Source: a virus
Virus record (IMG/VR): IMGVR_UViG_3300021961_000026
Span: 1 to 64,000 of that record
Length of the DNA stretch: 64,000 nt
Strand: one strand, 5' to 3'
Position 1 is the first letter of the stretch. Each line of letters opens with the position of its first letter. Of this stretch, positions 8,915 to 11,404 are shown one piece after another. The position numbers were made by a program, and so were the translations under genes. A model generated the notes under the pieces. It made no database searches and was not told the DNA's origin. It saw only the letters and a program-made list of their open reading frames with translations.

Positions 8915-11404
8915 TCAGGACTCGAAGAGCCCTTCGATGAGGATGTCCATCACAGTCTCCTGCCCAGGCTTTCCACCTTGGAACATGATGCGGTCCGACA
9001 CGCCGTACTTCTGGCGAGTCATTGCCGGATCAACAATCCAACGGTATAGAGCCATGGCATACTTGCCAGGATGAGATGTGTGACGCAGCTCGTCAACCAT
9101 TTGCTGAACGATGCCATTGACATCATCCGAACGCTTGGCAACCAAGTTGGACTTCGTGAACCGATCCATCTTGTCATGGATTTGGTTCTCCACATCACAA
9201 CGCTTGAGCAGTCCCTCATACTTGCCGAAGTACTGCTTAGCCCATGCCTGTGTTCCAGCAGGAAGAGACGGAATCTCCTCACACATGAACCGCACAAAGT
9301 TTGATTGCTGACGAATCCGGAAGGTATTTGCCTTCAAGACATCATCAACTTCCTTGATTGCAGCCACGTATGCATCATGCATGCGAGACCATGACCCCTT
9401 GACCAAGGTCCAGGAGTTATCTTCCTGAACAGCCTTAGGAACACGAGTCCGGAAGATGAACTCATCAACTTCCATATCCATGTTTGCCATGTCTTCCCAC
9501 ATGTCCTGCACACCATCACTGATGATGTCGAATGCATCTTTGTCAGCAGTCTGTGCTGTGATGTCGATGAGGTCATTGCCCGAGAACGGAAGGTTCTGTG
9601 GCATTGATGCACCAAACACCGAAGCGTGGACCATGATCGCATTTGCATACGACCCAATGCCAGGATTGTCCATCTGTGCGAGAATTGCCTGTTTGGCGTT
9701 CTCACGAGTGAACTTCCTGTCAGTGTAGGTTTTGTTTGACACCACCTGTCCGCAATTCACGGAGTTCAGCATCTCTGTGAGCGAACTTGGCGTATCAGCC
9801 AAATCCACTACAGGTACCTCTGCTTCTCGCATGAATGGCATCGACACCGAGTCGTACAACTCAATGCTGTAACCACCAGGTTGGTTTGGTGAACGGATCA
9901 CCACACAAGCCTCGATTGCTTCTTCAGGTGTTGATGGAACATCCATGTCAGACGGAATCACGTTGTAGGTACGACGCAATTGTGTGACGATTGGATCTGA
10001 GCTCCACAGCAGGATCTTCTCCACTGATGCCGCATCGCCGTCCTGATCCCAGGTGTCGTGCAGCTCCTCAGTATCGATGAACCGGTTGGCCGGAATGACA
10101 AGACCAACATTCTCCACGAAGAACACTTTGCCATGTAAGCAATTCTCCTCGATGAATGTATCGATGTCATAGCCACCCAAGTCACGGAGTGCTTCTGCCG
10201 TGATGATCGTTGCACTGAATGCATTGGTCACTGGCACCCACATCCTGTTGTTGCGTAGTGCTGCTTTCATCTGATTCTTGATAGAACCAAATGCCATCAA
10301 CAGAACGCTTGCAGATGCATCCACTCCAAAGCCTGCTTGCTGCCAGCGAACACTAGACAACTTGCGAGCCTGCTCTTGCCAGTAAGCAGTTACATGCTCT
10401 TGATGACGATTAACTTCCTCATCATCATGGTTGTCCTGCTCTTGAAGCATGATCCACTCAGGAATCTCACCTGACTCCATTGTCTGCTTGAACTCATCAA
10501 CCATGCCATTTAGGTCACGATAAAACTTGTCCTCAGTGTACAACCAGCTATGGTTATTTACCGCAGTCTGCATGTTCCAGACACTCTTGTAGAGGTGGTT
10601 CATGCGGAAAGCAACAAAGTGCCAATAGCCATCTGTCATGAGCAGTTCTCGCTTGAGTGCAGATTGATGCACCACAACATCATTATCCAATTGCTCATCG
10701 CTCACAATATGGAGAAGACCTTTGATTTCACCATTATCTGTGATAAAACGAGCAATTGCTGGACCAAACTCATCCTTGTGAATGAGCTGACGAAGCTTAT
10801 TATTGCCCTTAGCTGCACGCAATGCAAAGCTCTTGCGCATAAAGATCGGACCATCGTAGGCCAGATCAGCATGCAACAGAACCCTGCCACTGACAATGTT
10901 GATGTCCAAGTCACCCATCTTGCCCGAAGAGCTGAGCTCCGAGATACGAGTGACCTCTTGCATGCGCTTTGGCAGCTTCTTTGCATCAAGCCCCATCATA
11001 CCAAGATACGACAGATCAAATCCATCATATCCATCGATCTTGATGAAGAACGTGGATGTTGCGTTTGCCCACGCAAAGTTGGAAGAACCAACCATATCAT
11101 CGATGTCGATGCGCCGAGCACTGACCAATGTAGCCAATGCAGAGTTGCTGATCATCGCGACACGGAACTTCTTGCCTCGTGCGTTGAGCTTATTCTCAAG
11201 CAGTGGGTACCGCCAGTCCATACCGATCTCAACAGCATGAATGGGGAGCCCATTACTGAGGGTCATCGGACGATTTGCCGCAAGCGACTCCTCGTACTTG
11301 ACCTGTTCTTCCTCCGTGAGGAAGTGGTTAGTGATGCACCGGAATGCACCACGCAGGAAAGTCACGATGGACATACCTGCTCCTTTCTGGTTGTTTTCTG
11401 ACAT
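8915..11404 (-). CDS. Candidate single-chain two-barrel RNA polymerase (YonO/cellular RdRP-like)
   Basis: 829 aa; WDQDGD (DxDGD metal-binding motif), IKG, RMWVP and IRSPNQPG motifs. Confidence 0.55.
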   Translation of the reverse strand: MSENNQKGAGMSIVTFLRGAFRCITNHFLTEEEQVKYEESLAANRPMTLSNGLPIHAVEIGMDWRYPLLENKLNARGKKFRVAMISNSALATLVSARRIDIDDMVGSSNFAWANATSTFFIKIDGYDGFDLSYLGMMGLDAKKLPKRMQEVTRISELSSSGKMGDLDINIVSGRVLLHADLAYDGPIFMRKSFALRAAKGNNKLRQLIHKDEFGPAIARFITDNGEIKGLLHIVSDEQLDNDVVVHQSALKRELLMTDGYWHFVAFRMNHLYKSVWNMQTAVNNHSWLYTEDKFYRDLNGMVDEFKQTMESGEIPEWIMLQEQDNHDDEEVNRHQEHVTAYWQEQARKLSSVRWQQAGFGVDASASVLLMAFGSIKNQMKAALRNNRMWVPVTNAFSATIITAEALRDLGGYDIDTFIEENCLHGKVFFVENVGLVIPANRFIDTEELHDTWDQDGDAASVEKILLWSSDPIVTQLRRTYNVIPSDMDVPSTPEEAIEACVVIRSPNQPGGYSIELYDSVSMPFMREAEVPVVDLADTPSSLTEMLNSVNCGQVVSNKTYTDRKFTRENAKQAILAQMDNPGIGSYANAIMVHASVFGASMPQNLPFSGNDLIDITAQTADKDAFDIISDGVQDMWEDMANMDMEVDEFIFRTRVPKAVQEDNSWTLVKGSWSRMHDAYVAAIKEVDDVLKANTFRIRQQSNFVRFMCEEIPSLPAGTQAWAKQYFGKYEGLLKRCDVENQIHDKMDRFTKSNLVAKRSDDVNGIVQQMVDELRHTSHPGKYAMALYRWIVDPAMTRQKYGVSDRIMFQGGKPGQETVMDILIEGLFES

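Follow-up and report, generated by a model that had tools for sequence, protein, structure and literature searches.

An open reading frame (ORF) on the minus strand of the window (the whole 64,000-nucleotide stretch of viral DNA that was analyzed) probably encodes a highly divergent nucleotide polymerase of a phage, with two barrels on a single chain, that belongs to the clade formed by QDE-1, the RDR enzymes, YonO, and P23-45 gp64; most likely, the protein is a DNA-dependent RNA polymerase (RNAP) that is made early. The gene sits where one set of promoter-like signals yields to another, and the enzyme therefore probably drives a second wave of transcription. The features on which this reading is built are collected in Table 1.

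Table 1. Polymerase gene, its motifs and domains, related fusion proteins, and surrounding promoter-like signals (positions in the window)
Feature	Position or protein	Strand	Basis
Single-chain two-barrel RNA polymerase homologue, 829 aa (P0001)	8915..11404	minus	
Helix, residues 140-156, with invariant K143, K146, R147, and R153; candidate duplex-binding	10937..10987	minus	invariant columns and model
Beta-like double-psi barrel (DPBB-B), residues 157-267, with R219 and the IKG lysine K228	10604..10936	minus	
IKG, residues 227-229	10718-10726	minus	exact codons translated
RMWVP, residues 387-391	10232-10246	minus	exact codons translated
Catalytic beta-prime-like barrel region, residues 389-536: W389-x-P391, DQDGD 453-457, RSP hairpin 497-517	9797..10240	minus	
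DQDGD, residues 453-457, putative Mg-binding Asp triad	10034..10048	minus	exact codons translated
IRSPNQPG, residues 503-510, R-x-P-bearing beta-hairpin	9875..9898	minus	codons translated; strands 497-505 and 513-515 in model
Seven exact TATGGGTAG copies (8841, 11474, 12287, 12362, 12476, 12859, 13293)	span 8841..13301	minus	exact-match count, window
Class I cassette before the polymerase gene: terminator hairpin, T-run, TATGGGTAG; ~70 nt 5' of ATG	11474..11511	minus	hairpin -22.8 kcal/mol, z -4.15
Seven exact AAAATAGGGG copies (84, 3761, 6169, 6431, 7273, 8063, 8115)	span 84..8124	minus	exact-match count, window
Fusion homologues (PIF1-like helicase, NADAR, or DUF4326)	P0108, P0110, P0048, P0133		

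Translation of the exact codons bore out the features that the earlier note had read from this ORF, namely 829 amino acids (aa) with IKG, RMWVP, DQDGD, and IRSPNQPG about 50 residues later. The R-x-P starts 50 residues past the first catalytic Asp and 47 past the end of the DQDGD triad. Reading of the plus strand over the same positions is interrupted by many stops. In the 145-kb phage record to which the window belongs, this is the sole ORF of at least 150 aa with a DxDGD motif.

The predicted structure places the protein among two-barrel polymerases. An AlphaFold2 (AF2) model computed from a 74-row alignment was confident (pLDDT 92.1, pTM 0.89) and contains two double-psi beta barrels, with the lysine barrel before the Asp barrel as is characteristic of the two-barrel superfamily. 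The earlier note had proposed a divergent two-barrel polymerase and would have given up the idea had such barrels been missing; both the barrels in the model and a Foldseek comparison with the PDB agree with the proposal. All 23 Foldseek matches at E <= 0.001 were single-chain two-barrel RNAPs (maize and Arabidopsis RDR2, QDE-1, and P23-45 gp64/P74-26 gp62), and weaker matches were obtained to gp96, the phiKZ nvRNAP, and crAss gp66. No PolD (DP2) chain was among the structural matches listed. Over ~580-600 residues, the entire chain can be aligned with RDR2 and QDE-1 at 10-13% identity, and its lysine barrel precedes its aspartate barrel, as in those enzymes. In a viral structure library, the nearest entries were two uncharacterized proteins of uncultured Caudovirales (TM ~0.7), followed by P23-45 gp64. 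An independent search with protein-language-model features found the PF05183 RdRP family in 22 of the 30 nearest clusters.

The residues expected at the active site of such an enzyme are also present. In the proposed mechanism, the first barrel (residues 157-267) would contribute R219 and K228, basic residues of the beta K1065/K1073 type, and the second barrel would contribute D453, D455, and D457 for Mg binding, in agreement with the DxDxD triad found in the second barrel throughout the superfamily. The R...KGLL stretch of the first barrel corresponds to RLPWVKGLL of YonO and resembles GRHGNKGVI of beta. Immediately before this barrel, the AF2 model has a helix at residues 144-152. The pattern of residues 140-156 is like that of E. 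coli beta 675-690 and of AGQIRTKK in YonO, making this segment a candidate duplex-binding helix. Beyond the triad, the invariant R504 on the hairpin probably makes the ribose/3'-end contact of the canonical R-x-P arginine.

In contrast to the clear structural matches, searches at the sequence level found next to nothing outside metagenomes. The polymerase protein had only a chance match in Pfam (efThoc1 at E 0.11) and none in PHROGs, and neither the single protein nor the family profile matched a PDB sequence. A tblastn search against 50,697 GenBank phage records, a set from which near-identical records may be missing, was without a match. PF05183, which many YonO relatives carry, was not matched at E <= 1 by the protein or at E <= 10 by the genome, and hhalign detected no relation to YonO alone or to a 24-member YonO alignment (probability 0.3% and 0.15%, respectively). 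Sequence or profile similarity to P23-45 gp64/P74-26 gp62 was likewise not found. When the genomes of 185,579 species were scanned with peptide patterns of the family, 68 pattern matches were returned, none of them a true relative. In open-access literature text, we found no paper that describes this polymerase family; the 'moraphage' lineage (PMC12619734) was considered and set aside as a different, Bacteroidota-linked group without RNAP genes.

Relatives were found in metagenomic data. A word-indexed search with the polymerase protein yielded 54 clusters with 29-91% identity, and an exhaustive HMMER scan extended the family to 109 representatives at 50% clustering. All are unnamed or annotated as 'hypothetical', and several are located on contigs of 134-215 kb. 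In an alignment of 74 sequences, with identity to the polymerase as low as 22%, the residues K143, K146, R147, R153, D184, G185, K228, D453, D455, D457, R504, P506, D614, and D804 were invariant, and R219, G229, N507, and G510 were nearly so. Thus, the three aspartates of DQDGD, whose lack of conservation was to have counted against the earlier note, do not vary in this set. The Asp triad, the IKG lysine, and the R-x-P are among the best-conserved positions of the family, more than chance would give, and from this conservation we assume that the enzyme is catalytically competent. The spacing of the triad is less uniform: of 145 full-length members in a wider alignment (A2), 81 have a contracted WDxDD and 59 have DxDGD. 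The DQDGD subfamily, to which the present ORF belongs, has an extra Gly compared with the WDxDD majority. Among two-barrel polymerases, a metal site of the DxDD type would be out of the ordinary. Some distant homologues (~25% identity; 1,592 and 1,668 aa) carry an N-terminally fused PIF1-like helicase, and others are fused to NADAR (1,068 aa) or DUF4326 (1,406 aa); the latter two fusions would make sense for an enzyme moving along DNA.

The order of the R-x-P and the Asp triad distinguishes this family. The earlier note had assumed that the R-x-P precedes DxDGD elsewhere, and this was correct for E. coli beta-prime (RAP 425-427 ahead of DFDGD 460-464) and YonO (RSP 43 residues ahead of DNDGD 535-539), for which we checked the sequences, and for QDE-1 (R-S-P ~40 residues ahead of DYDGD; alignment in the supplement of PMC10770324). 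A published screen used the filter '[RK]xPx{20,100}DxDxD' (PMC10770324, Supplementary Data 4). The polymerase family fails this filter: an [RK]xP was not found 20-100 residues upstream of the triad, and the invariant R-S-P lies 47 residues downstream. At the usual upstream site, RMWVP is present in our protein and [RK]x[WF]xP in relatives, with the W and P alone broadly retained.

The earlier note had considered a circular permutation possible. A permutation on a large scale is contradicted by the model, since the alignment with RDR2 and QDE-1 is collinear throughout, and any rearrangement must therefore be local to the Asp barrel. On the other hand, the canonical R-x-P site is indeed empty, being occupied by W-x-P. 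Residues 268-391 of the AF2 model are helices only, and thus the canonical first half of the Asp barrel cannot lie upstream. After the catalytic loop, the model shows a strand (458-467), a helix, and then the hairpin (497-505/513-515) that bears R504-S-P. The aspartate barrel folded in isolation was a poor match to standard barrels. These three observations suggest that the local arrangement in the predicted structure is unusual. E. coli beta-prime has a conserved ILSPANGEP hairpin ~30 residues after DFDGD. IRSPNQPG could be a relocated R-x-P hairpin, which would agree with the model, or it could be the counterpart of ILSPANGEP, in which case the canonical R-x-P would have decayed to W-x-P. 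We regard the two explanations as about equally likely.

Comparison with characterized systems showed both shared and distinguishing traits. The similarity to QDE-1 of Neurospora and to plant RDR2 (PF05183) is confined to structure (see the identities given above) and is not detectable in sequence; moreover, those enzymes are eukaryotic, whereas the present one is from a double-stranded DNA phage and its template is probably DNA, and the R-S-P of QDE-1 lies before the triad rather than 50 residues after its first Asp. YonO of the Bacillus prophage SPbeta, described in PMC5467207 as a DNA-dependent RNAP that transcribes phage genes, is likewise a phage single chain of similar length (839 vs 829 aa) with KGLL as the lysine motif of its first barrel and with a DxDGD loop. 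It differs by its canonically placed RSP and by invariant C-terminal Cys pairs, which are absent from the phage polymerase studied here. P23-45 gp64/P74-26 gp62 (PDB 8F72, 8F5M) is shorter (~590 aa for gp64, compared with 829 aa), has a compact canonical Asp barrel, and comes from a phage of Thermus rather than of a likely actinobacterium. The crAss-like phi14:2 gp66 and P23-45 gp96 are parts of giant injected virion proteins (2,180 and 5,002 residues), in contrast to the stand-alone early gene in the window. Finally, the multisubunit beta/beta-prime enzymes (cellular, phiKZ/AR9) have their barrels on separate chains, whereas here both are in one chain, and their flap, clamp, and sigma-binding modules are absent. 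No sigma-70 region 2 was found in the 145-kb record, which is ~69% complete (CheckV estimate), and a search for T7-type RNAP had no match in this record but was uninformative, as it had none in any of 14 control genomes either.

The record carries portal, major head, and tail-sheath genes on the plus strand, indicating a large, uncultured contractile-tailed phage, with the structural module at 26-64 kb. The polymerase gene is located in a leftward block (1-16.4 kb) of mostly orphan genes. The G+C content of the early leftward block (6000-14000) is 45-48%, compared with 28-40% for most of 16000-64000. The earlier note had sited the gene at the meeting point of two motif classes, and the mapped copies place it exactly there (Table 1). 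Class I cassettes consist of a terminator hairpin and TATGGGTAG; in the window, they are confined to the surroundings of the polymerase gene and the region upstream, and one-mismatch copies of the motif are present at 8283 and 8217. In the five copies that were folded, A- and U-rich sequence flanks a strong hairpin (-22.8 to -29.5 kcal/mol, z -4.2 to -5.4), and the motif comes directly after it. N4-type hairpin promoters were considered for these cassettes and rejected: in their length, their high G+C content, and the A- and U-runs beside them, the hairpins resemble intrinsic terminators. The second motif, AAAATAGGGG, is an A-tract/G-tract element near start codons, often a few bases from a Shine-Dalgarno sequence, and in the window it is confined to the downstream side of the polymerase gene, as transcription runs. 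Each motif has one extra copy in the remaining 81 kb of the record. Within 1-17500, terminator-like sites were enriched (32 vs 12.8 expected) and sigma-70-like promoters were not (44 vs 38 expected); the class I cassettes are devoid of sigma-70-like elements.

Several other signals were noted in and around this block. The internal ATG of TATGGGTAG (8841-8849 and 12859-12867, minus strand) is the start of ORFs 8339-8848 and 12552-12866 in the mechanical list. If transcription begins in the G-run of the motif, these ATGs would be unusable, and the true genes would start further downstream, possibly in another frame (e.g., ORF 8545-8793). A tRNA-Arg gene (anticodon TCT; 3785-3858, minus strand) lies just upstream of the AAAATAGGGG copy at 3761-3770. 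The minus strand has three copies of TAGGGGAA (at ~14323, 14397, and 14487) and one ATAATAGGGG within 14318-14490, a stretch 5' of the class I block that separates RecA from the first TATGGGTAG. In the whole record, TACTAT has 56 copies on the plus strand, often ahead of late genes of that strand, and 30 on the minus strand. The actinobacterial -10 pattern is TANNNT, which TACTAT fits, and the late genes may thus be transcribed by the host polymerase.

The layout around the polymerase gene is conserved. Five relatives keep the gene order ClpX-like gene, divergent RecA, small genes, polymerase, small genes, and RecA is a few kb upstream of the polymerase gene in every relative. In L008 and L009 (47-48% identity), TATGGGTAG is found before and AAAATAGGGG after the polymerase gene, except that L009 has three class I copies downstream. 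In L002 (43% identity), both motifs are altered, with TATGCCTAG before the gene and AAAAGGGGGG after it. In L011 (29% identity), AAAAAGAGGGG follows the gene, and around the gene of L010, we looked for a repeated motif and found none. Across the relatives, none of the genes adjoining the polymerase is a strictly co-conserved partner. The best-conserved downstream neighbor encodes a 352-aa protein without a Pfam match (5043-6101, minus strand), with counterparts in L008, L009, L002, and L010 (27-53%). In L011, a ClpB/ClpX-like AAA+ gene (1027-2868) contains an intein. Relatives also harbor a WhiB-like gene and an Rpf-type transglycosylase plus SLT gene (L002, 14478-14741; L008, 20509-21363), gene content from which an actinobacterium is the likely host.

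If the polymerase drives a cascade, one would expect both the switch of signals at its gene and the divergence of these signals along with the polymerase. In such a cascade, the insulated TATGGGTAG cassettes would express the polymerase gene as one of their last units, and its product would then transcribe the downstream small-gene block marked by AAAATAGGGG. The motifs are promoter-like in their placement, and we infer the cascade from this layout and from the parallel with phage P23-45, whose two-barrel RNAP gp64 is made early and recognizes a short motif located immediately 5' of the start sites (10.1101/2022.12.01.518664).

The layout could also be read the other way around: a virion-packaged, injected polymerase would read the TATGGGTAG class, including the signal of its own gene, and AAAATAGGGG would be a host-read or other signal. 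Class I cassettes flank the polymerase gene and lack sigma-70-like elements, packaged two-barrel RNAPs exist (crAss gp66 and P23-45 gp96), and in L002 the two motif classes change along with the polymerase. But the gene belongs to the early leftward block, by RecA and far from the structural module, and the P23-45 enzyme encoded in the early region is the one that stays out of the virion; we consider this reading unlikely. Quite improbable, in our assessment, is a two-barrel enzyme for replication, either the RNA primase of the phage replisome or a PolD-like DNA polymerase. The PIF1-like helicase fusions and the constant proximity of RecA would fit such a role, and PolD, as described in PMC7708050, shows that a two-barrel core can make DNA. 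In addition, a DnaB-like helicase was found in the 145-kb record, yet no DnaG-type primase, AEP primase, or family A DNA polymerase; at ~69% completeness, however, a missing primase means little, and the helicase gene is ~120 kb from the polymerase gene. Against replication, RNAPs fill the structural match list, and the gene has small early genes as neighbors and stands where the promoter-like motifs change, a switch that is conserved.

The template was weighed in the same way, since the closest solved structures, RDR2 and QDE-1, are RNA-dependent enzymes, a fact that we counted against the reading as a DNA-dependent RNAP. An RNA-dependent RNA polymerase could copy phage or host transcripts, for example into antisense or double-stranded RNA for regulation or counter-defense. 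In line with this, the best structural matches are eukaryotic RNAi polymerases, the RdRP Pfam family appears in the nearest feature clusters, and QDE-1 is reported in PMC9508822 to be active on both DNA and RNA templates. However, the phage members of the clade that are reported as tested (YonO, gp64, gp96, and crAss gp66) are all DNA-dependent (PMC5467207; 10.1101/2022.12.01.518664), and no role is known for an RNA-copying enzyme in a double-stranded DNA phage. The genomic context lends it no support, and transcription explains the conserved promoter-like layout more simply. We therefore think it very unlikely that RNA is the template. Also counted against that reading were the absence of the canonical [RK]xP from its usual place, the DxDD, instead of DxDxD, of most relatives, and the deviating motif layouts of L009 and L010. 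On balance, an early-made DNA-dependent RNAP is the reading we prefer.

A more far-reaching proposal can be made tentatively, with more doubt than confidence. The family could be an unrecognized branch of two-barrel enzymes, mostly with DxDD, in which the R-x-P hairpin has moved to a position after the catalytic loop (a non-sequential or permuted barrel), and which would serve as middle-gene RNAPs that read A-tract/G-tract promoters in widespread, ~200-kb uncultured phages probably infecting actinobacteria. Such enzymes go undetected by profile searches as well as by the published motif filter. A catalytic barrel that is truly rearranged would show how far the two-barrel active site can be rewired while its key residues are kept.

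Single-chain two-barrel RNAPs are minimal relatives of the universal transcription enzyme. To our knowledge, few have been characterized (YonO, QDE-1 and the RDRs, crAss gp66, and P23-45 gp64 and gp96). The phage single-chain two-barrel RNAP is thus already known as a kind of enzyme; new here are the sequence family, the way its motifs are arranged, the DxDD variant, and a clean set of promoter-like signals. With at least 109 clusters (50% identity) that are invisible to Pfam and to YonO profile comparison, the family has probably been missed by surveys of phage RNAPs, and the phages that carry it would be counted as having no RNAP. The candidate promoters and terminators are unusually clean and differ between relatives, which makes promoter specificity directly testable, and the polymerase with its signals may be of use as an orthogonal transcription system.
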